DNA of 64,000 bases, taken from the NCBI GenBank assembly GCA_965248575.1, contig CBDFJQ010000002.1:3929375-3993374 (forward strand), written 5' to 3'. Position numbers and translations under genes: made by a program. Shown here piece by piece: positions 10,674 through 63,222 of this stretch. Below the pieces are notes generated by a model. It was not told the DNA's origin. It made no database searches and saw nothing but the letters and a program-made list of their open reading frames with translations. This DNA comes from Planctomycetota bacterium. Its GTDB lineage: Bacteria > Planctomycetota > B15-G4. Positions within the stretch are counted from its first letter, which is position 1; every line of letters starts with the position of its first letter.

Positions 10674-11837
10674 ATGAGCAACACTCCCGCAGCGCCCCGC
10701 ACCCGCAAGAAGCGCAGCCGCCTGGGTTTCGCAGCTGCGCTGAGCGTGGTCGTGGTGCTGCTGCCGGCCTTGTGCCTTGAGGTCTATCTCCGCATGGACA
10801 AGGAGAAGCACGACCTGTGGTCCATGACGGGGCGGGAGTTGGGCGAGAACCCGATCAAGCAGTGGGGGCAGGTGGACGCCTTCAGCGCCTACCGAGGACG
10901 TGCGGGCGCCGGTGGCATCGGCAAGACCATCAACAGCCTCGGGTTCATCTCGACCCCGGAGCTCACGGTGCAGAAGCCGGCGGACACGGTGCGCGTCGTG
11001 TTCCTGGGCGGTTCGTCCACTGCTGGAACGGGCCAGGACCTGGCGGACGTGGACACCTGGCCCTGGCACGTCGCCGAGGAGCTGCGGGCGGCCATGCCTG
11101 CGGGGCGCAAGCTGGAGTTCATCAACGCGGCGCTCGGGGGTTACAGCACCTTCGAGACCTACGGCCGGCTGTGGAGTCGACTGCGCGCGTACGAGCCGGA
11201 CGTGTTCGTCATGTATCACGGCTGGAACGAGATGTACTACTTCGACAAGACGGCGCCCGAGGACTTCGTCAAGTGGCGCACCTTGCCCGACGGCAGCTGG
11301 ACGCTGGACCGCAAGCGCGGCAAGACCAGGGAGCTGGAACCCTGGTGGGCAGACCACCTGATCCAGTACAGCCAACTGCTCATCCGCGGTCGGATCCGCC
11401 TGGCCAAATGGGCGGGCAGCCTGGAAGGCGAAGTGGGCGGCAGCAAGACACTCAGCGATGACTATGGTCGCGACGGGCCCGAGGTCTTCCGCTTCAACCT
11501 GAAGTTGATCCAGCAGGCCTGCGAGATGATGGACGCCGAGCTCTTCGTGGCGAAGCAAGCCACGCTGATCGTGCCGGGCCTGGACGACAAGCAACGGGAT
11601 CGTTGCCGTTACGACTACCACGGCTTCGGTCACGACGCGCACCTGGCGGCCTACCAGGCGCTCTACGATGTCATCGATGCGGAGGTTCCTGCCGAGCGTG
11701 TCATCGACGTGACGACCCTGAGCGGGCGGCCCGAGGTCTTCGCCGACCACGTGCATCCAACGGAGGCTGGCGCGCGACGTATCGCAGCGCTCGTGGCAGA
11801 CGCCGTGGCGACCACGGTCACGAGCGCCGGGCAGTAG
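10674..11837 (+). CDS. SGNH/GDSL-type hydrolase family protein with N-terminal membrane anchor
   Basis: ATG at 10674 ([35 protein letters not shown]); [11 protein letters not shown] block resembles the SGNH block I; track ORF 10206..11837 has a GC-rich spurious 5' extension. Confidence 0.6.
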
Positions 11838-11920
11838 CCGACCGACTCGTCCCAGTCCCGCCGCTGGCACGGCATCGCGAAAGCCGTCAGGCTGGGGCCC
11901 TTCCTCTGAAGGGGTCTGCC

Positions 11921-14890
11921 ATGTTCGTGACTCGACTGCTGCCTGTCGCCCTGCTGGGTGCCGCATTCTCAAGCTCCGTCTCTGCAGCGCTGCCCACTGG
12001 TGATCGTTACGCCGTTCTGCACCTGGATGAGCTGGTCGACGCTCTGGTTGTGCGTAACCCGAGAAGCCCTAAGTGGTCGTTCGCAGCAAACGTCGGGCGG
12101 GTGCACGTGGTGCTCGACGTGGAGGGGGACGCCTACGTGAGTCCGCTGCACAAGCAGGCTGCCGAGGGCGTGCCGGAACTCTTGCCTCCCGATGGCGACG
12201 GTCGGCCAGACACCACGTGGGGCCGCGGCTGGGGCCACACCATGTTGGGCGTAGCCGTGGACGAGTCGGCGGTGGGTTCCGTGACGGGTACGCTGCACGT
12301 TCCTGGCAGCGAGGGGGGGCCGGGCATTGAGGTGCCCTTCGAGATTCCGGCAGAGGCCTTCAGCGAGGACGCAGGGCCGTACTCGATCCTGGAGCGCGGG
12401 CACTACGGTGCCATGCTCGACCGTGATCTTCCGGGGGCGGCGTGGTTTCGGCACCAGCATGACGCTGCCCAGGCGCGCTGGTTGGCGGCGGCCGTGGAGC
12501 AGGGGCGTGAGCTGGGGGCGAGCCCGCAGCTGCGGAATGCTGACCGCATACTGAACCGGTCGCGCTCGACCGTCGAGGACAGTTTCGAGCTGTTCAGCGG
12601 GGGCCGCGCGGTGAGCGAGAATCTGCAGTTGGATCGCACGCTGCCTGCGTCGCCCGAGGGTGAAGACACGGTTCCGGTGGACAGCGTGCAGGGCATCACG
12701 ACACCGGCCTACGACTGGGCGGCGCTCATCGAAGGTCTCTCGCCAGAGCTGGATCCCTTGGCGCAGCTGATCCCCGCGGACCAACACGCGGTCTTCTTCC
12801 CGAGTTTCGAAGCGCTGGTGGCGGTGGCAGATCACGCCGAAGAACACGGCACGCCGGTCTTGGCTGCGCTCGAACCGCGCTCGGAATCGGCGAACACGCG
12901 TCAGCGCTATGAACAGCAGTTGGGAGTGCCCATGAGCGCCTTGAGCCGACTGCTCGGGCCGGCGATCCTGGACAGTGTGGCCATGACGGGTTCCGACCCC
13001 TATCTGCGCACCGGCTCCGATGTCGCCCTGATCTTCGAGGGCTCGACGTCTGCGGTGGAGCCCTTGCTGGTGGCTCGGGTGCGACTCGCTGCCCAGGGAG
13101 TACCGGGTGTCACCGCGGTGGAAGGAAAGATAGGCGACGACAGCTACACGGGCTTCACCAGCGAAGACCGTTCCTTCTGCAGCTATGTGGCGGCCTTGGG
13201 TGATCGGGCAGTGGTGGTCTGCAACTCCCTGGCCCAACTGGAGCGGCTGTTCGCCACGGCGCGCGGCGACGGCCCGGCCCTCGCGTCCTTGGATGAGTAC
13301 GTCTGGTTCCGGGATCGCTATCAGCGCGGCGAGGAGGGTGAGTCGGCCTTCGCCATGATCTCCGACGCCACGATTCGCCGCTGGTGCGGCCCGCGTTGGC
13401 GCATCGGCAGCTCCCGCCGTAGTCGGGCGGCCGCGGTCGTTGCCGAGTGGCAAGCGCGTTCCGTTGACGCCCTCATGGCAGAGGATGCTGCGGACCTCGG
13501 GCCCAGCGGCCATGCACTACCTGAGTACGGCCTCCTGCCCGGCGCCGGCCCCATGAGTTTGACGGCGGGCGGCGTGCGCTCGGAGGACTACGGCAGCCTG
13601 GGATTCGCGACGCCCATCGTCGAGCTGGACCTCGACCTCGTGACGGAGGACGAATCCGATCTCTATGAGCGTTGGCGTCGGGGGTATGAATCAAACTGGT
13701 CTAACTTCTTCGATCCCATCGGCATTCGCTTCAGCGTCGACGAGCAGCAGCTCGCCATGGACATGACGGTGCGTCCGCTCATCGCTGGCAGCGACTACCG
13801 GGACTACATTGGGTTGTCGGCGGGCGCCGAGTTGGATGCGCTGAGCGGTGATCCCCACGAGGAGGCCCTCGTCCACTGGGTCTCTGCATTCAACAGGAAC
13901 TCGCCCAGCCTGAGTCGCGCGGAGGTGCTCGGCTTGGCGCGCATGCTGGCCCCCAAGCTGGACCCCTTGGGTTGGGTCGGCAGTTCGTACTCGCTCTACA
14001 TCGACAAGGACGACTTCTGGGCGGAGATGGCAGCCGCCGAAGACGGAGAGTCCTTCCTGTTCGAGGAGCTGTATCGCTTGCCCATGGCCGTGCACGTCGA
14101 CATCGACAACGTCATGAAGCTGGCGGTGGCGCTGACGGGGCTGCGCGCCGTGGCTGAGCAGACCATCCCCGACATGTTGTTGTGGGAGAACCGCAAGCAC
14201 GCGGGGCGCAGCTATGTGCGCGTGGGTCCCTCCGATCTGGCCTTGGAAGACATGCGCTCCGAGGTGGATGAGTTTGAGAACTGGGATCAGCTGGCTCTCT
14301 ACTATGTGCCCGGGCCCGGCGGTCTCACGTTGTCGCTCAACGAAGAGTTGGTGAAGCGTGCCATCGACCGATCCCAGGCGCGGCGGGGCGTGGGCGCTGA
14401 GAACACGGGCGCAGAGGATGGCGGCACAGAGCGTGCGGAGGTAGGCGCAGCCGAAGACGACGCGTCAGGCATCGAGAACGCCGCTGACGCGTCGAACCCC
14501 TGGCTCGGCAAGCAGCTGGGCCTACGCGTCTCGCGAGACGTGGTGGAGCTCTTGGAGGCGGGCATGATCCGTCAGGGCATCCAGCCGCTCCAGGAACTCT
14601 CGTGGAACAACCTGCCCATCCTGAACGAGTGGAAGCGCCGTTGGCCGCAGCACGACCCGGTCGACGTGCACGAGACCCTGTGGGGGCGGCGTCTCTTGTG
14701 CCCCGGCGGTGGTGAGTACCGCTGGAATGCGGACGACCAACGCATGGAGTCAAGTCTCTACGGACACCCCGGCCGACCGCTCGTCGGGCCGGTGCTCCCT
14801 AGCGCGGTGAAGGGGATCGGCAGTGCCGACCTCGGCATCGACTTCGAGGAGGATGGCTTGCGCGGGCGCGTGACGTTGACGCGTCAGTAG
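11921..14890 (+). CDS. large secreted hypothetical protein (989 aa)
   Basis: ATG 11921 gives signal peptide MFVTRLLPVALLGAAFSSSVSA; long uninterrupted frame; no recognised motif. Confidence 0.6.
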   Translation: MFVTRLLPVALLGAAFSSSVSAALPTGDRYAVLHLDELVDALVVRNPRSPKWSFAANVGRVHVVLDVEGDAYVSPLHKQAAEGVPELLPPDGDGRPDTTWGRGWGHTMLGVAVDESAVGSVTGTLHVPGSEGGPGIEVPFEIPAEAFSEDAGPYSILERGHYGAMLDRDLPGAAWFRHQHDAAQARWLAAAVEQGRELGASPQLRNADRILNRSRSTVEDSFELFSGGRAVSENLQLDRTLPASPEGEDTVPVDSVQGITTPAYDWAALIEGLSPELDPLAQLIPADQHAVFFPSFEALVAVADHAEEHGTPVLAALEPRSESANTRQRYEQQLGVPMSALSRLLGPAILDSVAMTGSDPYLRTGSDVALIFEGSTSAVEPLLVARVRLAAQGVPGVTAVEGKIGDDSYTGFTSEDRSFCSYVAALGDRAVVVCNSLAQLERLFATARGDGPALASLDEYVWFRDRYQRGEEGESAFAMISDATIRRWCGPRWRIGSSRRSRAAAVVAEWQARSVDALMAEDAADLGPSGHALPEYGLLPGAGPMSLTAGGVRSEDYGSLGFATPIVELDLDLVTEDESDLYERWRRGYESNWSNFFDPIGIRFSVDEQQLAMDMTVRPLIAGSDYRDYIGLSAGAELDALSGDPHEEALVHWVSAFNRNSPSLSRAEVLGLARMLAPKLDPLGWVGSSYSLYIDKDDFWAEMAAAEDGESFLFEELYRLPMAVHVDIDNVMKLAVALTGLRAVAEQTIPDMLLWENRKHAGRSYVRVGPSDLALEDMRSEVDEFENWDQLALYYVPGPGGLTLSLNEELVKRAIDRSQARRGVGAENTGAEDGGTERAEVGAAEDDASGIENAADASNPWLGKQLGLRVSRDVVELLEAGMIRQGIQPLQELSWNNLPILNEWKRRWPQHDPVDVHETLWGRRLLCPGGGEYRWNADDQRMESSLYGHPGRPLVGPVLPSAVKGIGSADLGIDFEEDGLRGRVTLTRQ

Positions 14891-15544: not shown

Positions 15545-16348
15545 CTAGCGGTTGTCGCCGCCCAGGAGGCGGCCGACACCTCCCAGGAGGGATCCCTCGC
15601 CCTTGCTGCTCCCCCCATGGCGAGGAGCGCTGGCCAGGATGCGGTCTGCCAAGCGGCTGAAGGGCAGGCTCTGCAGGTAGACCGTGCCGGGGCCGCTGAG
15701 TTCGGCCAGGAAGAGACCCTCACCGCCGAAGAGCATGGAGCCGATGCCCTTGACCATGGTGATGTTGTAGTCGACCCCGGCGTCGAAGCCGACGATGCAG
15801 CCGGTGTCCACCTTGAGGCGGTCGTTGGGGCCCAGCTCCTTCTTGACCACCGTGCCGCCGGCGTGGATGAAGGTGAGGCCGTCGCCGCGCAACTTCTGGA
15901 GGATGAAGCCCTCGCCGCCGAACAGGCCGACACCGAAGCGCTTGTTGAAGGCGATGGACAGCTCGGTGCCCATGGCTGCGCACAGGAAGGCCTGCTTCTG
16001 GCACAGGAAGGTGCCGCCCACGGCGGAGAGATCGATGGGCACGATCTTGCCCGGGTAAGGCGCGCCGAAGGCGACCTGGGTGCGGCCCGTGCCCTCTGCC
16101 GTGAAGTGCGTCATGAACAGGCTCTCGCCGGTGAAGACGCGCTTGCCGACGCTGAAGATCTTGTCCATGAAGCCAGCTTGCGGGTTGCTGCCGTCACCCA
16201 TCTTGGTGTCCATGTGGATGTCCGGGTTCATGAACATCATGGCGCCCGCCTCGGCGATGACCGTCTCGCGCGGATCGAGGGTGATCTCCACGAACTGCAT
16301 GTCGTCGCCGTGGATGACGTAGTCGATCTCGTGGGAGTTGGTGGGCAT
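15545..16348 (-). CDS. TIGR00266/AIM24-family protein
   Basis: [26 protein letters not shown]...[44 protein letters not shown] follows the conserved AIM24/DUF124 pattern; start trimmed to ATG 16348. Confidence 0.75.
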
Positions 16349-16469
16349 GGGGGTGGGCTCCGGTTCGGGGGGGCTGGGCTGGCAGCGTGGCTGCTGGCGG
16401 GGGACACTTTGGGATGCGGGGGGTTTGGGTTTCAAGGATGGGGGGGACGGGTGGATGGTTGGCGCTGGT

Positions 16470-16635
16470 GGTGGGCGAGGCCCGTCAACCCGGCCAAGTG
16501 GTCGCTCGGGAGGGAGGGTGGGCTGCCTCCGCCGGTTTCGGGCCTGAGGCTTGTTGGATCTGCTGAGGCTTCAGGCCCGAAACCGGCTGCTTTGGGGCTC
16601 GCTCTACATGGCCGGGTTGAAGGGCCTCGCCCACC
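16470..16635. repeat. nested inverted repeat (outer arms 16470-16495 / 16610-16635, inner arms 16531-16550 / 16568-16587) in a G/T-rich divergent intergenic region
   Basis: Outer arm GGTGGGCGAGGCCCGTCAACCCGGCC vs reverse complement of GGCCGGGTTGAAGGGCCTCGCCCACC (25/26); inner arm GCCGGTTTCGGGCCTGAGGC vs GCTTCAGGCCCGAAACCGGC (19/20). Confidence 0.6.
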
Positions 16636-16807
16636 ACCAGCTCCAATCGTCACGTGGGTGGGTTGGGGGTGCTCGCCACGCAGTCGCTCCAGTCGTTCCG
16701 TGGGTTCTGGCCATCGTGGGGTGGGGTGTGCTCCCGCGTAGCGGTCGCTCTTGGCGCTGTGGGGTTGGGGTGATCGCGGCGGGGTTTGGGGGAGCTATGG
16801 TTGGGTC

Positions 16808-17404
16808 ATGGATGAGACGACTCGTGAGGATCTGGGGCGGGGCTTGCTGCCTGCTTTGGTGGGTGCGGATGAGGTGGTGCGGCGGGTTCGTGCGGTCGGG
16901 GCGGGGAGCGTGATTGATGTGCGCTCTCCTGTGGAAGTGCTTGGGGAGTCGGTCCCGGGGGCGGTGGCGGTGCCGCTGGATCAACTGGAGGCGCGTCTGG
17001 ACGAGGTGCGGGCGGTGCCGGCGCCGCGGCTGTTGTTGTGTCGCTCGGGTGCTCGGGCTGGCAAGGCGATGGAGACCTTGACCGCGCTGGGAGTGGACGG
17101 GTTGAGCGTCATGAGTGGTGGGCTGGAGGCCTACCGGGCCGCGGGAGGCAGCACCGTGTCCGCCGGCTCGCACATGTCGCTCGAACGACAGGTGCGGGTG
17201 GCGGCCGGTTCCCTGAGTTTGCTCGGGGTGATCCTGGGTTTCTTGCTGCACCCGGGATTCTTCGGCTTGTCGGGCTTCGTGGGAGCGGGTCTGGTGTTCG
17301 CCGGGGTCACGGACTGGTGCGGGATGGGATTGCTCCTGGCGCGTGCGCCTTGGAATCAGCGCCCTGGGACGCGCGCTCAGCCGTCGGACACGCTGTCCCA
17401 GTAG
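16808..17404 (+). CDS. rhodanese-like domain protein with C-terminal YgaP-like (DUF2892) membrane segment
   Basis: Rhodanese-like core with active-site-like LLLCRSGARAGKA; C-terminal hydrophobic GVILGFLLHPGFFGLSGFVGAGLVFAGVTDWCGMGLLLA; ATG 16808 preferred. Confidence 0.7.
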   Translation: MDETTREDLGRGLLPALVGADEVVRRVRAVGAGSVIDVRSPVEVLGESVPGAVAVPLDQLEARLDEVRAVPAPRLLLCRSGARAGKAMETLTALGVDGLSVMSGGLEAYRAAGGSTVSAGSHMSLERQVRVAAGSLSLLGVILGFLLHPGFFGLSGFVGAGLVFAGVTDWCGMGLLLARAPWNQRPGTRAQPSDTLSQ

Positions 17405-18432
17405 GGGGCGAGGGCCTGACGTGCCTTGCCGACGGTGACGGTTGCGTCGATGGAGGGCGCGGCGTCCAAGCCGAAGTCGCGGCCTGGGACACCGGGTTCG
17501 GCGCCGCTGCTGGCGTGCAGGGCGGCGCGCACACCCTGCACCACACCTTGCGGGTCGTAGCCCCCTTCGAGGGTGCACACGAGGCGACCGGGGCAGTGCT
17601 CGTCCGACCAGCTGCGGAACAGTTGGAACAGGGCGTCGAAGCCAGAGCGGCTGACGGCCAAACCCCCGAGGGGGTCGGCGTGCCAGGTGTCGAAACCGGC
17701 CGAAACGAGGATCAGGTCGGGGCGGTAGTCGGAGACCACGGGGCCCACCACCTCTTGATAGAGGTGCAGGAGGTCGGCGTCGCCCATGCCCGCGCCCAGC
17801 GGTAGGTTTACGGTGTGGCCGGCGCCCTCGCCCGTGCCCACCTCGGTCAGCGGGCCGGTGAAGGGATAGAAGGGGTAGCGATGGCTGGAGACGTAGAGCA
17901 CGTCGCTGCGGCTGTCGAAGGCGTGTTGGGTGCCGTTGCCGTGGTGCACGTCGGGGTCGAGGATCAGCACCCGTTCGCAGCCCAGCTCGGCTCGGGCGTG
18001 TTCGGCGGCTACGGCCACGTTGTTGAAGAGGCAGAAGCCCATGGCGTGGGAGGCTTCGGCGTGGTGGCCGGGGGGGCGCACCAAGGCGAAGGCGCCGGCG
18101 GCCTCGCCTGCGACCACGGCTTCGGTGGCGGCGAGGGTCGCCCCCGCACCCTTCAGGGCAGCCTCCCAGGAGCCGGCGCTGGTGATGGTATCGCCGTCGA
18201 GGGCGACAGGGGCCTGACCCGCCGTGGCCTCGACCACATCCACATGCTGGGCGGTGTGCACCCGTTGCAGCTCGGCGCGAGTGGCTCGGCGCGGGCTGTC
18301 CTGGCGGGTGCCGGGCACGGGGCGCGCGTCCAGGTCGTCCAGCACCGCGGCCAGTCGGGCAGCGTTTTCCGGATGGCCGGGACCCGGGTCGTGCTCCAGG
18401 CAGCTCGGGTCTCGTAGGATCAGAGTGTCCAT
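17377..18432 (-). CDS. histone deacetylase-family (acetoin utilization/HDAC-like) protein
   Basis: MDTLILRDPSCLEHDPGPGHPENAARL..., FALVRPPGHHAE, ILDPDVHHGNGTQ, VSAGFDTWHADPLGG: canonical HDAC/arginase-fold motifs; start trimmed from track ORF 17377..19248. Confidence 0.85.
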   Translation of the reverse strand: MDTLILRDPSCLEHDPGPGHPENAARLAAVLDDLDARPVPGTRQDSPRRATRAELQRVHTAQHVDVVEATAGQAPVALDGDTITSAGSWEAALKGAGATLAATEAVVAGEAAGAFALVRPPGHHAEASHAMGFCLFNNVAVAAEHARAELGCERVLILDPDVHHGNGTQHAFDSRSDVLYVSSHRYPFYPFTGPLTEVGTGEGAGHTVNLPLGAGMGDADLLHLYQEVVGPVVSDYRPDLILVSAGFDTWHADPLGGLAVSRSGFDALFQLFRSWSDEHCPGRLVCTLEGGYDPQGVVQGVRAALHASSGAEPGVPGRDFGLDAAPSIDATVTVGKARQALAPYWDSVSDG

Positions 18433-18504
18433 GCAGCGAACGGTAGCGCTCGCCAGGGGCGGGCTCCAGTGGCGAGGCGGCGGTGACCCAGCGGTGATCG
18501 ATCG

Positions 18505-19725
18505 ATGAGCAGGGGACAGCGAAACGCGCTCATGGCCTTCGGCCTCGTGCTGGTCGCCTATGTGCTGGCCCGCGCCCTGTCTGGCGACAACGACTTCGAC
18601 GGCTTCCATCGCGCGGCGCAACACGTGCTCGACACCGGGACGCTCAGCCGGGTGAAGGACGTGCAGCGCTACCCGCCCAGCTTCCAATTGCTGATGCTGC
18701 CCTTCGGTCTGCTGCCATTGAAGGTGGCCGCGGGACTGTGGTTGGTGTTGAGCGTCGTGGCTCTGTGGAAGTTGCCGCGCCTGCTCGAACGCCTGATGGG
18801 TGTCCCGGTCTCCGCGCAGTTGGTGGCGGGCTGCGTGATGCTGCCGCTGGTGGTGGACAACCTGAACCTCGGGCAGAGCGCGCCGGTGTTGGTGTGCCTG
18901 TGCGCGTTGGCGCTGGTCTGGGCGCGGGAGGGGCGTGGACTCGCCAGCGGCTTCTTGTTGGGTGTACTCGCCCTGTTCAAGGTGTTGCCCGTCGTGATGT
19001 TGGCGATCCCGATCCTGTTGTGCGTGCGTGGCGGCAGTGGCGAGGCCGGCGACGAAGCTGCTCGGGGAACACAGGCAGCCCTGCGGCTCGTGGCGGGTGC
19101 GCTGCTCGCCCTGCTCCTGGCAACGGCTGGGCTCGTGGCCGTGGTGGGCTGGGAGGACACGCGCGACACGACGCAGCAATGGGTCACGAAGACCCGCGCT
19201 GAGCAGACGCCCTGGGCGCTGGTGGCCAACAACCGCAGCCTGCGTCACAACAACGAAGGGCTGGGCGTTGTACTCGCCCGGACCTACTGCGACATCAGCC
19301 CGGCGCAGGCGAAGGGCTCCGTGTCTCTGGCCAAGTGGCCACTGTCGGTGGCGTGGGGGATGTACGGCGCCCTCTTGGCGGGGCTCGTGGTGGCGGTGTG
19401 GCGAGGGCTGTTCGCGGTGCGGCGGCTCATGGCTTCAAGCGAGGCCGCAGCCCGTCACAGTGCGTGGGGCGGGCTGTTCGCGCTGGCGTGCTTGGGCACC
19501 CTGCTCATCTCACCCATCGTGTGGACGCATTACTTTCTCTGGGTGTTGCCGGCCGCCGTCTTCCTGCATGAGCGGCAACGCCTGGTGTTGTGGGGCGGTG
19601 TCGCCTTCGCCGTGTGTTTCGCCGTGACGCCCCTGCGCGGGCTGGGCGTGCACATCTATGCGACCTATGCGCTGTTCTGGGTGTTGGCGTTGGAGATCGT
19701 GCGCCGGGCGCGCGCGTCAGGCTAA
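18505..19725 (+). CDS. polytopic membrane protein, GT87/DUF2029-like glycosyltransferase candidate
   Basis: About 10 predicted TM helices with conserved-looking loop motifs; family call is from overall architecture and tentative. Confidence 0.5.
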   Translation: MSRGQRNALMAFGLVLVAYVLARALSGDNDFDGFHRAAQHVLDTGTLSRVKDVQRYPPSFQLLMLPFGLLPLKVAAGLWLVLSVVALWKLPRLLERLMGVPVSAQLVAGCVMLPLVVDNLNLGQSAPVLVCLCALALVWAREGRGLASGFLLGVLALFKVLPVVMLAIPILLCVRGGSGEAGDEAARGTQAALRLVAGALLALLLATAGLVAVVGWEDTRDTTQQWVTKTRAEQTPWALVANNRSLRHNNEGLGVVLARTYCDISPAQAKGSVSLAKWPLSVAWGMYGALLAGLVVAVWRGLFAVRRLMASSEAAARHSAWGGLFALACLGTLLISPIVWTHYFLWVLPAAVFLHERQRLVLWGGVAFAVCFAVTPLRGLGVHIYATYALFWVLALEIVRRARASG

Positions 19726-21480: not shown

Positions 21481-23331
21481 ATGGCTCGCATGCTCCCCAG
21501 GACCTCGCTCCGCTCCTTGCGCCGACTCCTGGTGGGTCCGGAGTGGCTGGTGGTGGCCACCTTCGTGCTGATGATCGAGCTCATGGCGCCCACGGTCGAA
21601 AGCGATGTGGACGACATCACATGGGTGATCGTGATGCCCATGCTGCTGAGCTTGGGTTGCATCATGGCGACGCACCAACACCTGCCCCTGATGAGCGGCC
21701 TGGTGACCTGGGCCTCCAAGCTCTTCAAGCGCATGCGGCGCAACCTGGTGGTGAGCCTGGGCCTCGACTTCCACCCGGAGCGGGCGCCGCGGCTCGCGCC
21801 CTTCGTCACCCTGCGCAAGGGCGTCTTCATCTTGTTCCTCGTAGCAGCCGTGCTGTTGGCGGGGCGTGGTCTAGGTCGCGACGTCCTGCAAGCCACGCGC
21901 GTGCAAGGGCTCTACACGCTGCACAACCTGATGATCGGGACGGCCTGGTTTGGTTTGATCCTGGGCACCGTGATCGCGGTGCCTGCCAGCTTGCTGGCCA
22001 TCCTCGAGGTGGTGCGCAGGCGGTTTGGGGTCGAGGGCTTCGGGCGCGTGATGTTGGTCTCGGGTGGCTCGGTGCTGGTGGCCATTTTCCTGGTCGTGCT
22101 CAACGCCAAGACGGGGCTGACGGGCTGCCTCGGTGTGCTGGCCTTTGCCACCTTGCTGCCGTCCGTGGTGCGGCCCATCGACCCGCCCCGGGGGCAATGG
22201 CTGAACATCGCCATGGGTCGCAACGGGCCCCCGCGTACGATCCGTCTCGGGCAGCTGCTGACCGACACCTACCGCGTGTTGTCATTGGTGGCCTTCTCCA
22301 TCGTGGCGTTGCTGATGCCGGGCGAGTCGGCCTTGTCCGCGACCACCTTCCCGGTGACGGACCTGCTGTTGTCCGTCTTCGGCTGGTCGGCGGCCTGGTT
22401 GCTCACGGGCGGTGCCTGCCTGGGCATCGGTGAGTTCAACCGTCGGCGACGTCTGTTCGACCCGGCCTTCCCCCGCAGCCGGGTGTTGTGGGCGGTGCCC
22501 GGCCCGGAGGCCCGTGCCTTGGAGCAGGAGCGGCACGCGGTCGAGGAGGCTGGCTGGCGGCTCGTGGTCTCGGACAGCCTGCCCGGCCCCGAAGACGCCG
22601 ACTTGCTGGTGGGTGTTCCCACGAGTCCTTTGCCTCCGCGCGGTGTGCCTCTGACCCAAGTGCCGCCCGCCATCTTCCTGGTGGACGAGGACCCTGCGGC
22701 CCTGCTGGCCGAAGCCGAGGAGCGGGACAAGGCCGAGCGCGCCAGCGAGGCCATCGAAGGCTTGCTCAACGCCACCCGACCGCGCATGGGCGACCACGGC
22801 GAGGGGACGTTCCTCGTGCCCCATTGTTGGTTGGTGGTGGGGCTCACCCGGGACGACGAGCGCGGGAGTCTCGAACGCAGCCCCGTGCTGACCTTCGGCC
22901 AGCCTTTCCGCATCGCCTTCGGCACCCGCCTGCGTCGCTTTCTCTACGACGTCATGGCCCGGGCCGACATCGACGTGCTCTACATCGAGGACTCCGTGAC
23001 ACCGGAGCAGGTGAGCGAGGTGCTGGAATTGCTCTTCGAACGTCACATCTCGCGCATGCAACCCGAGGCCGTGGCCGAGCACGACTTCGTGGGCGTGACC
23101 GGTGTGCGGGTGGTGCTGCACAACGTGGACCCGGAGGGCGAAGGCATCAAGGGTGTCGACGCCCACGTCTCCCGCAACGCCATCTCTCGCGCGCGGATCA
23201 TGATCATCGGCCACGACCGACGAGACGATGACGACGACGAGGGCCCGCCCGCCGATGGCGAGTCCAGTGATCTGTGGTTGGAGGAGAGCCTGAGCGGGCT
23301 CTTCCCCAAGACGCCTCTGCAGAACATCTGA
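21481..23331 (+). CDS. large hypothetical integral membrane protein with acidic C-terminal tail
   Basis: 616-aa ORF with multiple hydrophobic segments in the N-terminal 330 residues and a soluble C-terminal region ending in DRRDDDDDEGPPADGE; lies immediately upstream of intI. Confidence 0.5.
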   Translation: MARMLPRTSLRSLRRLLVGPEWLVVATFVLMIELMAPTVESDVDDITWVIVMPMLLSLGCIMATHQHLPLMSGLVTWASKLFKRMRRNLVVSLGLDFHPERAPRLAPFVTLRKGVFILFLVAAVLLAGRGLGRDVLQATRVQGLYTLHNLMIGTAWFGLILGTVIAVPASLLAILEVVRRRFGVEGFGRVMLVSGGSVLVAIFLVVLNAKTGLTGCLGVLAFATLLPSVVRPIDPPRGQWLNIAMGRNGPPRTIRLGQLLTDTYRVLSLVAFSIVALLMPGESALSATTFPVTDLLLSVFGWSAAWLLTGGACLGIGEFNRRRRLFDPAFPRSRVLWAVPGPEARALEQERHAVEEAGWRLVVSDSLPGPEDADLLVGVPTSPLPPRGVPLTQVPPAIFLVDEDPAALLAEAEERDKAERASEAIEGLLNATRPRMGDHGEGTFLVPHCWLVVGLTRDDERGSLERSPVLTFGQPFRIAFGTRLRRFLYDVMARADIDVLYIEDSVTPEQVSEVLELLFERHISRMQPEAVAEHDFVGVTGVRVVLHNVDPEGEGIKGVDAHVSRNAISRARIMIIGHDRRDDDDDEGPPADGESSDLWLEESLSGLFPKTPLQNI

Positions 23332-60354: not shown

Positions 60355-63222
60355 CTACAGCTCGGCCAGGCCGATGCGCGCATCTTCCAGGCCTTGCCTG
60401 ATGAACAGGATGTTCGTGGGATCGGAGTCGAGCAGCAGGTCGGCTTCGCCCAGCTCGTCGAAACGTTGGAGTGCGAACTCGTAGTGCTCGCAGGCAAGTT
60501 CCCACTGAGCGAGCCCTCGGTGTGCGTCCGCGCGGAGCGCAGCGCCCACCATGGTCATGCGCTGTGCCCAACGGTCCGTGGGGTCCTGTTGGAGGACCAG
60601 GTCGAGTTGGTTGCGGAAGTCGAGGGCCCGCGCCATGGCTTCGGCGGGGTCGCCGGCTTGCATGGCCACCATGCCCAGCTTCAGGACCGCGAGCGCACGG
60701 TGAATGCGCGCGATGAGGTCGTCGGGAGCATGGGCCAGGACTGCGTCGGCTTCAACCAACGCACGTTCCAAGAGCTCCGTGGCGACCGCCGGCTCACCGC
60801 GCGTCACCCGGAACTCTCCGGCATCCACGAGAAAGGCCATCAGGTCGCGACGGGCATCGAGGTCTGCGGGATGGCGCAACAGTGCCGATTCCACCCGGTT
60901 GATGGCGTCGGCATTGTGGACGACGGCGGCGTCCCACTCGCCCAGCCGGGCCGACGTGCGCGCCATGTCCTGCTTGACCAGCCAAGCCTCCCGGGCTGCA
61001 CCCAGGTCGAGGGGGTCGGCCAGCATCAGTGATTCGAGGCGCTTCCAAACATCGGCGAACAGCTCAGAGGCTTCACGCTCTCCCCCGGTGGCGCTCAGGA
61101 TCCGCCCATGAAAGCGCTCGGCCATGGCCAGGTCGCGCTCGGCGAGAGGGGTGCCCGGCGCGCTCTTGTGCAAAGTGCGAGCGAGGGTCACGGCGTCCGC
61201 ACCACAACGCTTTGCTTCGTCGAGGTTGCCTGCTCGCTCGTGCAGTTCGCCGGAAGAGACCAGGACCGCGAGCAGGGGGCGGAAGGCGCGAGGGTTCTTG
61301 GGGTCGGCTTGGGCCACGTCGCGCGCGAGCTGCAGCGCCCGGTTCAGTTCGGTCAAGGACTCGCTGCTGCGGCCCAAGACCCCGAGCACCTCGGCCTTCT
61401 CGACGAGAGCTGTGACCAGCAGCGGAGAGTCGGGTTGCTGTGCAACGCCCAGCTCGTGCACCAACTGTTCTGCTTGCTGAAGGCGGTCGAGAGCGCGGTC
61501 TACTCGACCCTGCCGTTGCTCCACCTTGGCAAGACGCTGGAGTGCCTGGACCCGCGCCTCCGTGAGGTCAACGTCTCCGGGCGTCTGGGCCAGTTGCCGT
61601 TCCACGAGCTGGAGATGCTTGGCGTAGCTCGCGGCGGCTCCCTCTGCATCGCCCAGGCTTGCGCGTGAGGCGCGACCCTGGACATCTCCCATGCGCAGGT
61701 AGCCTGCGCTGAGCTCGGCGAGCAGCGCCTGATCGTCGCCGGCCTCCAGGCTCAAGGCGTCCAGGTAGTGCAGGGACGTCTCCACCAGGCGTGCGCGCGC
61801 GCGGGTCGCACCGGGCAGGGCGGCAATCTCGTCGTGCAGGCCGTGTAAGAGTTCGCCGGCCAGCGAACGAATCTGATCGAAGCGGCTGACGGCCCGGAAC
61901 TCGGCGCGTTCGGCGCGGCTGCGGGCCAGGCCTTCGTCGAGGTAGAGCTGCAGGATGACGACCAGGGATGTGCTGAGGACCACCAGCAGGAGTGCGACAC
62001 CACCGACCAAGAGCTTGTTGCGCTGAACGAAGCGCAGAGAGCGATAGCTGGTGGAGTGGGGGCGGGCGAGCACGGGCAGTTGCGCCCTGTATCGGCGGAG
62101 GTCTGCGGCCAAGGCGCCCACCGAGGCGTAGCGGCGTTCCACGTCCACGCGCAGGGCCGTGGCCAAGATGACGTCCAGGTCGCCCCGGAGTGCATGGCCG
62201 AGGCGGGTTGCGTCGGTGTGGCGATGGGCCGCGCGGTCCTTGGGAGGCAGCGTTCCGTCCAGCTCGCGCCGCACCACCTCGCTGGCAGGGGGCGGTTCCT
62301 CGTTCACGGAGGCGGCTCGCTGGACCAGGCTGGTGCCCCGGTCCGCGTGAGGGGCCACACCCGTCAGCAGCTCGTAGAGCACCACGCCCAGGGAGTAGAT
62401 GTCCGACGCGGTGCTGACAGGCTCGTCGCGCAACTGCTCCGGGCTGGCGTATCGAGGAGTGAGAGGACGTGGGCCCTCCAGGGTCCGTTCTCCGGCCTGG
62501 CCTGTCTCCGAGAGCAGGCCCGCGATGCCGAAGTCCAACAGCCGCGGCTCACCGTCTGGAGTGACGAGCACATTGGCCGGCTTGATGTCGCGGTGGACGA
62601 CGAGCTGCCCATGGGCATGTTCCACGGCATCGCAGACCTTCAGGAAGAGGTCGATGCGCTCGTGGATTGCGAGCTCGTGCTCGTCGGCGTGCCGATCGAT
62701 GGGCGTGCCGTGCACGAGCTCCATGGCCAGCCAGGGGTGACCGAGCCCGGCCAGCGTGGAGTCGCCCGCCGAGATCTCCTCGGTCCCGCCGTCCAACAGG
62801 CGGGCGATGTTCGGATGGTTGAGGCGCGCCAGGGCATCGCGCTCCACGCCGAAGCGCTTCCGGTAACCCTCACCGAGCAAGCTGGGGTGCAGCAGCTTGA
62901 CGGCTGCGCTCATGGCGAAGGAACCGTCGGCGCGTTCGGCGCGGTAGACCGTCCCCATGCCCCCGCTGCCGAGTTGTTCGTGCAAGCGCCAGGGCCCGCA
63001 TTGCTGCAGCATGCTCGGGGCGGGGAGTGGGTCCTCCTCAAGCGCGGGTGGGGCCAGGAAATCCGGATCGGAGTGCTCTTCATCGAGCACGGATCGGGCC
63101 AGGGACAAGAGCTCGGCATCCCCCTGACAGGCCTCAGCCAGCTCGTCGTCGCGGCGCGCTGCGGGCGCTGCCAGGACGCGATCCAGTACGGGGCGCACCC
63201 GTGCCCAGACGTCAGCCTTCAT
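60355..63222 (-). CDS. Ser/Thr protein kinase with TM segment and long C-terminal TPR-like domain
   Basis: Hanks kinase motifs: GSGGMGTVYRA, AVKLL, HRDIKPANVL, DFGIA, SPEQ, DIYSLGVVLYELLTG; TM LVGGVALLLVVLSTSLVVIL; start trimmed to ATG 63222. Confidence 0.8.
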   Translation of the reverse strand: MKADVWARVRPVLDRVLAAPAARRDDELAEACQGDAELLSLARSVLDEEHSDPDFLAPPALEEDPLPAPSMLQQCGPWRLHEQLGSGGMGTVYRAERADGSFAMSAAVKLLHPSLLGEGYRKRFGVERDALARLNHPNIARLLDGGTEEISAGDSTLAGLGHPWLAMELVHGTPIDRHADEHELAIHERIDLFLKVCDAVEHAHGQLVVHRDIKPANVLVTPDGEPRLLDFGIAGLLSETGQAGERTLEGPRPLTPRYASPEQLRDEPVSTASDIYSLGVVLYELLTGVAPHADRGTSLVQRAASVNEEPPPASEVVRRELDGTLPPKDRAAHRHTDATRLGHALRGDLDVILATALRVDVERRYASVGALAADLRRYRAQLPVLARPHSTSYRSLRFVQRNKLLVGGVALLLVVLSTSLVVILQLYLDEGLARSRAERAEFRAVSRFDQIRSLAGELLHGLHDEIAALPGATRARARLVETSLHYLDALSLEAGDDQALLAELSAGYLRMGDVQGRASRASLGDAEGAAASYAKHLQLVERQLAQTPGDVDLTEARVQALQRLAKVEQRQGRVDRALDRLQQAEQLVHELGVAQQPDSPLLVTALVEKAEVLGVLGRSSESLTELNRALQLARDVAQADPKNPRAFRPLLAVLVSSGELHERAGNLDEAKRCGADAVTLARTLHKSAPGTPLAERDLAMAERFHGRILSATGGEREASELFADVWKRLESLMLADPLDLGAAREAWLVKQDMARTSARLGEWDAAVVHNADAINRVESALLRHPADLDARRDLMAFLVDAGEFRVTRGEPAVATELLERALVEADAVLAHAPDDLIARIHRALAVLKLGMVAMQAGDPAEAMARALDFRNQLDLVLQQDPTDRWAQRMTMVGAALRADAHRGLAQWELACEHYEFALQRFDELGEADLLLDSDPTNILFIRQGLEDARIGLAEL

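Follow-up and report, generated by a model that had tools for sequence, protein, structure and literature searches.

Two divergently transcribed genes of a Planctomycetota-like genome are separated by a spacer of ~460 bp (16349–16807) that contains a large nested inverted repeat, raising the question of where this structure came from and whether it serves the genes beside it. The spacer lies in a 64-kb window (the whole stretch of DNA analysed, 64,000 nucleotides), and its flanking genes were correctly recognised, in their divergent arrangement, by an earlier sequence-only reading: Pfam domains identify an AIM24/TIGR00266 gene on one side (15545–16348, − strand), and on the other a rhodanese gene with a YgaP-like transmembrane (TM) domain (16808–17404, + strand). 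The same reading described the spacer as rich in G runs, and indeed it holds 30 runs of three or more G in 460 nt against 10.2 ± 3.6 in the window, a count that is the window maximum. It further proposed that the repeat could be a regulatory hairpin or operator pair, a structured RNA, or a small MITE-like element, and these proposals have fared unequally.

Both pairs of arms lie exactly where they were first placed, 25 of 26 nucleotides being complementary in the outer pair (16470–16495 and 16610–16635) and 19 of 20 (95%) in the inner pair, which closes a loop of 17 nt (16531–16550 and 16568–16587). The outer pair is longer than first noted, its arms extending over 46 nt each (41/46 paired, 89%) with 106 nt between them, and the whole foldback measures ~198 bp (16454–16651; Table 1). 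A core, CTGGTGGTGGGCGAGGCCC[G/T]TCAACCCGGCCA, is common to both outer arms, whose termini read GAYGRTTGGNGCTGGTGGTGGGCGAGG.... The two segments between the helices cannot be aligned with each other, and the segment between the outer arms is itself largely symmetric. Positions 16459–16646 as a whole align to their own reverse complement (~67% over 202 columns, E ~2e-16 to 5e-11) about a symmetry centre located in the loop. The foldback is the sole significant long hairpin in ~296 kb comprising the window and related loci, and within the window it is the sole long inverted repeat besides an overlapping 21-nt palindrome at 60364–60393 (GGCCAGGCCGATGCGCGCATC..., 86% complementary), the only other inverted repeat to pass the window screen. 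A separate sequence in the 3' coding region of the HDAC-family gene beyond the rhodanese gene, GGGCGAGGGCCTGA (17406–17419), combines the 8-mer core found in the outer arm (GGGCGAGG) with that of the inner arm (GGGCCTGA); both matches are at chance level (E ~0.75 for each), and they are treated as coincidence.

Table 1. Coordinates of the spacer, the foldback and the extra block, as positions of the window
Feature	Position	Strand	Basis
AIM24 leader and promoter-like region, ancestral, outside the insertion	16349–16440	−	Aligns with the spacers of L127, L128 and L129
Lineage-specific extra DNA, ~0.94 kb	16441–17376 (approximate)		Synteny with L001/L127, L002, L128, L129 and L003; tree
Left outer arm, 46 nt	16454–16499		Pairs with 16606–16651 at 41/46
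Asymmetric internal-loop segment, 31 nt	16500–16530	+	Contains the G-quadruplex motif GGGAGGGAGGGTGGG (16508–16522)
Inner hairpin	16531–16587		20-nt arms 16531–16550 and 16568–16587 around a 17-nt loop
Asymmetric internal-loop segment, 18 nt	16588–16605	+	Counterpart of the 31-nt segment
Right outer arm, 46 nt	16606–16651		Pairs with the left outer arm
G/T-rich non-coding stretch, 156 nt, 72% G+T	16652–16807	+	Composition; no coding GC3 signal; no consensus promoter found
Intact orphan YgaP-type rhodanese gene	16808–17404	+	Pfam: rhodanese domain and YgaP-like TM domain

Structure prediction over a stretch of 226 nt confirms that the repeat would fold very stably, giving −163.1 kcal/mol (z = −11.5) for the + strand as RNA, −134.9 kcal/mol (z = −12.7) for the − strand as RNA, and −85.3 kcal/mol (z = −11.5) with DNA parameters, where z-scores refer to 200 dinucleotide-preserving shuffles, none of which equalled the real fold in any of the three calculations. 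As RNA the + strand is the more stable of the two. The helices contain six non-Watson-Crick positions, of which three, as read from the sequence, are G-U pairs on this strand and none on the other. This excess of three G-U over no A-C is not significant (~p = 0.125), and the G+T-rich composition predicts such pairs anyway.

No other part of the window deviates as strongly in G+T as the lineage-specific extra block around the foldback (Table 1). The 1-kb stretch from 16251 is the + strand G+T maximum of the window (66.1% versus 52.4 ± 2.5), and three of the ten canonical G-quadruplex motifs of the window cluster in the spacer or at its edge (16508–16522, 16333–16357 and 16399–16429), all on the + strand, the first of them being a four-tract motif with single-nucleotide loops. 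The foldback is non-coding, since six-frame translation of the spacer yields no Pfam match at E ≤ 10 and its ORFs lack gene-like GC3 (59–71%, versus 79–93% for real genes in this genome). Scans of 16200–16950 found neither a consensus promoter nor an intrinsic terminator, and no T-run follows either arm in the sequence, so that the hairpin does not fit an intrinsic terminator; tRNA and tmRNA searches were likewise negative. By eye, the arms show two weak outward promoter-like matches, one directed at the rhodanese gene (TTGAAG, 19 nt, TCCAAT) and one at AIM24 (TTGACG, 19 nt, GCCAAC); the consensus scan found no such site, and the two count as no more than a hint of possible promoters. An apparent ~61-nt direct-repeat module downstream of the hairpin, built on GGTCGCTC motifs, was rejected after sensitive self-alignment and TRF returned low-complexity G-run matches only.

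The origin of the spacer is best approached by comparison with related loci, identified through AIM24. The AIM24 protein has a match of 100% identity on a 5.29-Mb contig, and its relatives are named Planctomycetota. The closest relatives share with the window the gene order GT87 – HDAC-family deacetylase – AIM24, at 67–84% nucleotide identity (GT87 68%, HDAC 76%, AIM24 81–84%), and in the four closest lineages HDAC is followed directly by AIM24 across spacers of ~25–175 bp, as opposed to 1028 bp in the window. None of 36 related AIM24 loci has a rhodanese gene between HDAC and AIM24, or any similarity to the spacer or hairpin. A neighbour-joining tree of AIM24, built on this single gene and without support values, places the window as sister to L127 and nested among L128/L129, L131 and L003; since these are lineages in which HDAC directly precedes AIM24, one gain in the window's lineage would be more parsimonious than repeated loss, and the difference is accordingly interpreted as an insertion, not a loss. 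The extra block, which runs from the stop codon of HDAC to the native promoter-like region of AIM24, consists of the foldback, the 156 bp of G/T-rich DNA and the reverse-oriented rhodanese gene. Relatives that are without the hairpin are also without the whole 0.94-kb block, no empty site for the 198-bp element alone being seen among them, and their spacers evolve too fast for the insertion boundary to be placed to the base. At the far end of the block the search for a matching terminus or flanking direct repeat produced nothing beyond 8-mers (E ~0.75), and a paired far terminus was therefore rejected. A long palindrome upstream of AIM24 in L130, considered as a possible analogue of the foldback, was rejected, being located in coding sequence and no more stable than its shuffles (z = −0.2).

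Some gene models in this neighbourhood call for comment. The mechanically called HDAC-family ORF (17377–19248, − strand, 623 aa) is too long, homology to the 347-aa proteins of relatives beginning at MDTLILRD (~18432), and the GT87 gene (18505–19725, + strand) lies opposite its upstream part. Further away, two large + strand ORFs of 1095 aa (11603–14890) and 616 aa (21481–23331) have gene-like GC3 and no Pfam match at E ≤ 0.001.

On the AIM24 side, part of the spacer is shared with relatives. Reading along the − strand, the AIM24 leader presents CTTGAAA (16437–16431), ~18–19 nt, CAAAGT (16411–16406), and then a CGGAG ribosome-binding motif, and a corresponding arrangement upstream of AIM24 (CTT[GA]GAAA, ~18–19 nt, ATCCCAnnnT or, in L128/L129, CATAAT, and CGGAG) is common to the window, L127, L128 and L129. 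This promoter-like motif is conserved although the spacers of these relatives cannot otherwise be aligned. The ~90 bp next to AIM24 are thus ancestral, and as the foldback starts ~17 bp beyond the −35-like box it would lie at the boundary of the extra DNA. Immediately downstream of AIM24, more distant relatives carry palindromes of 33–113 nt (L137 4805–4857, L138 880–932, L139 4815–4847, L143 4822–4928) that are probably terminators; no comparable palindrome was found downstream of AIM24 in the window.

The rhodanese gene is intact, with its catalytic LCRSG motif and the entire TM domain conserved. Identity to the best-matching homologues is no more than 58–66%, and these occur in other genomic contexts, whereas relatives of AIM24 reach 85–88%. 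Every rhodanese homologue in the contexts examined adjoins an ArsR/HTH_5 regulator gene, located upstream or divergent. In the ygaVP operon of E. coli, ygaP is controlled by YgaV, a repressor of the SqrR/BigR type (PMC9774250), and the gene found here likewise encodes a YgaP-type membrane rhodanese with a conserved catalytic cysteine. However, both the partner repressor gene and the short palindromic operator (which in the homologues, as read from their sequences, resembles TGCTCA-N3-TGAGCA) are absent here, and the 460-bp spacer with its foldback occupies the position of the regulator gene in relatives. No ArsR-type (YgaV/SqrR/BigR-like) regulator gene or remnant was found in the window. A decayed gene of this type in the spacer was rejected: the best tblastn match, weak and located inside the hairpin (E = 0.006 in a 650-bp search space, 18/34 identical), spans a stop codon, no frame has a Pfam match, and a coding GC3 signal is lacking. 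With no regulator gene beside it, the rhodanese gene counts as an orphan; its promoter must lie in the spacer, and the 156-nt G/T-rich stretch must hold, or follow, this promoter. Upstream regions of the rhodanese homologues examined span 73–174 bp, and none has a foldback-like leader. At its other end the gene overlaps the 3' end of the convergent HDAC-family gene by 28 bp (17377–17404), its tail past the conserved PWN motif being encoded antisense to the HDAC C-terminus.

Composition may link this gene to the DNA upstream of it. G+T makes up 64.8% of the rhodanese coding sequence and 73% of its third codon positions (G 57, C 23, T 16, A 5), compared with third-position values of 44–49% in its homologues, 42–61% in other + strand genes of the window and 53–56% in + strand neighbours, and its GC3 (79%) is below that of its neighbours (86–93%). 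As this G+T skew spans both the gene and its upstream DNA, it would be consistent with the two forming one imported block. A possible alternative cause is local strand-biased mutation pressure, the minus-strand neighbours being C3-rich in their own sense and so mimicking such a skew. Regional strand skew might by itself explain the G/T richness, although third-position G+T in the + strand neighbours is well below that of the rhodanese gene.

If the foldback were a mobile element, copies might be expected elsewhere. With the spacer as query, sensitive BLAST of the 64-kb window returned nothing but the spacer's own reverse complement, a single copy in 64 kb of a 5.29-Mb genome excluding, at 95% confidence, only families of more than ~250 copies. 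A strict 25-nt arm pattern had no match in metagenome contigs or viral contigs, nor the inner-stem pattern in viral contigs, nor the extra segment in plasmids and phages. The 19-mer common to both arms (CTGGTGGTGGGCGAGGCCC) gave more than 119 single matches in unrelated phyla across a genome collection, none of which, among the matches listed, extended past ~25 nt, and these are chance occurrences of the oligomer. No transposase, integrase or recombinase gene lies within ~12 kb. The sole candidate for a target-site duplication, GGGTG(G), adjoins the left arm and is 4 nt off the right arm, and is unconvincing; GGGTG occurs seven times in the 261 nt of spacer around the foldback. Of the properties on which the sequence-only reading had staked its proposals, fold stability is thus present, whereas conservation and repetition were not found.

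Among the explanations that may be offered for this structure, the one preferred here, at a probability of about 0.4 and hence tentatively, is that of a foldback or MITE-like mobile-element relic tied to the acquired rhodanese block. It is favoured because the foldback is non-coding, absent from relatives, and located at the boundary of DNA that appears to be imported. The MITE-like element of the sequence-only reading fits as to architecture: long terminal inverted repeats (46-nt arms, 89%) bound a non-coding element of 198 bp, short on the scale of such elements (<~500 bp), with a non-palindromic core and an internal hairpin, in lineage-specific DNA. Against a classical MITE stand the lack of a convincing target-site duplication, of a transposase gene within ~12 kb, of a matching terminus at the far end of the block, and of a second copy in the window, metagenome and viral contigs, plasmids or phages. 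Bacterial MITEs, for example of the Correia/ERIC type, share with the foldback a size of ~200 bp, long terminal inverted repeats around a non-palindromic core with an internal hairpin, a non-coding and intergenic nature, a location next to promoters, and lineage-specific presence. It differs from them in being GC-rich, seen as one copy, and without a clear target-site duplication. The preservation of both pairs of arms (89% and 95%) around segments that cannot be aligned suggests a layout of terminal repeats around a core, unlike a uniformly decayed inverted duplication. Likewise, a rhodanese gene without an ArsR/HTH_5 neighbour fits a gene torn from its native context.

A course of events in keeping with this relic would begin with the insertion of a block of ~0.94 kb between HDAC and AIM24, genes that are adjacent in the closest relatives, bringing along an intact rhodanese gene of the YgaP type but not the ArsR-type (YgaV/SqrR/BigR-like) repressor gene that usually accompanies it. 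The foldback may have arrived with the acquired gene or landed beside it, and would form the inner edge of the block, standing between the native promoter-like region of AIM24, at a distance of ~17 bp, and the DNA upstream of the rhodanese gene. A transcript from either strand would be predicted to form a very stable hairpin, and this could impede read-through. That the foldback belongs to the imported block and is of mobile origin is inferred, as is any effect on transcription; its present effect is probably incidental.

The main rival to the mobile-element relic, itself rather unlikely, is that a local inverted duplication created the palindrome in place, through template switching or foldback repair, when illegitimate recombination brought in the rhodanese block, and that the palindrome is now a partly decayed scar with neither a mobile origin nor a function. 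The alignment of nearly the whole element to its own reverse complement, centred in the loop, is what such an event would leave behind, and the location right on the border of the extra DNA, the single copy wherever searches were made (window, metagenome and viral contigs, plasmids and phages), the missing target-site duplication and the distance of at least ~12 kb to any transposase gene all agree with it. It accounts less well for the very uneven decay, in which highly paired arms alternate with 31-nt and 18-nt segments that have become unalignable, as uniform neutral decay would have produced a different pattern. In addition, neither arm resembles the relatives' spacers, and no template for the duplication is visible.

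Functional readings at the RNA level survive less well. The proposal of a structured RNA or regulatory hairpin is borne out as to the very stable fold and finds no support in the family and homologue searches: Rfam has no match at gathering threshold in the whole window, and there is no homologue in any relative. At E ≤ 10, Rfam 15 produced only miRNA-hairpin models on the inner stem, scoring 19–27 bits against thresholds of 57–97, and these sub-threshold matches are generic noise. A specific version of the proposal, which must be judged decidedly unlikely, has the rhodanese gene transcribed from upstream of or within the foldback, so that a G/U-rich 5' leader with a hairpin and a G-quadruplex would act in cis in place of the missing ArsR-type repressor. 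The greater stability of the + strand fold, the G-U pairs confined to that strand, the strong G-quadruplex motif GGGAGGGAGGGTGGG in the internal loop of a spacer with the highest G-run density in the window, and an intact gene without its usual regulator are all in line with such a leader. Against it, no homologue was found that would permit covariation analysis and no Rfam family matches, the G-U imbalance is insignificant and expected from composition, no promoter could be placed, and no rhodanese homologue examined has a leader of this kind upstream. Near-perfect helices of 46 bp are, moreover, atypical of riboswitch-like leaders. Long near-perfect helices would be RNase III substrates, and the near-perfect 46- and 20-bp helices look like a DNA-level repeat, not an evolved RNA. 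An elaboration in which these helices compete with the G-quadruplex of the loop and the flanking G-quadruplex motifs, forming a conformational switch for a rhodanese gene bereft of its sulfide-sensing ArsR-type repressor on transfer, is less probable still and would be a distant contender.

Recombination at the DNA level would cast the foldback as a recombinase site, either an invertible promoter segment (inverton) between divergent genes or the integron attC of a reverse-oriented cassette, and is very improbable. The geometry of an inverton is there, 46-bp inverted repeats flanking a 106-bp segment between divergent genes, but this segment is largely symmetric and without a promoter-like site, so that inversion would change little. 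As in an attC site, an imperfect palindrome stands at one end of a gene-sized insert, the extra block when read from HDAC to AIM24 being a reversed ORF followed by a hairpin, and the arms contain GTTGAAG and CGTCAAC, near-matches to the R-box consensus as read from the sequence. Canonical attC sites measure 57–141 bp and carry R''/R' boxes (RYYYAAC/GTTRRRY) at their termini. By manual reading of boxes and size the foldback does not fit this class, since its R-box-like heptamers match at five to six of seven positions and lie 10–16 nt inside the 46-bp arms instead of at their ends, and its 198 bp exceed the typical attC length. Neither an invertase or integrase gene within ~12 kb nor a cassette array accompanies it.

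A stand-alone small RNA gene, for instance one resembling 6S RNA, an extended hairpin opened by a large central bubble, is the least credible of the scored alternatives. The predicted ~200-nt extended hairpin, with its closing stem, 31 × 18 nt asymmetric internal loop, distal stem and terminal loop, is presumably a superficial reminder of 6S RNA in shape only, as no 6S or other Rfam family matches even at E ≤ 10 (miRNA-hairpin noise aside), close relatives lack the structure at this locus, it is surrounded by lineage-specific DNA, its helices are far too perfect, and neither promoter nor terminator was found. The pair of operators suggested at first is not supported, with arms of 46 and 20 bp that are 106 and 17 bp apart lying far outside transcription-factor operator geometry, and the ArsR-type regulator absent. 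REP/BIME palindromes (GTAG- or CGTC-tagged) are also extragenic palindromic DNA able to fold into larger structures, and the right arm happens to end in CGTC, but REP stems of 5–13 bp (8–9 bp in CGTC families) with loops of 2–20 nt, in families of tens to thousands of copies (PMC3733652), contrast with stems of 46 and 20 bp and a single copy in 64 kb, and this identity was rejected.

Taken as a relic of a mobile foldback, the structure is probably neither a conserved RNA gene nor an operator, and is best viewed as debris left in the DNA by a small gene insertion, fitting no defined functional class. A hairpin and G-quadruplex-rich leader would matter more only if shown to regulate the orphan gene. 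Should the origin as a mobile or foldback relic be confirmed, the locus would provide a small and well-delimited case of an accessory gene wedged between conserved core genes in a Planctomycetota-like genome, in which a membrane rhodanese has been cut off from its regulator and a scar left right beside a native promoter. Such a case, though not surprising, would be of use in annotation and in work on horizontal gene transfer.
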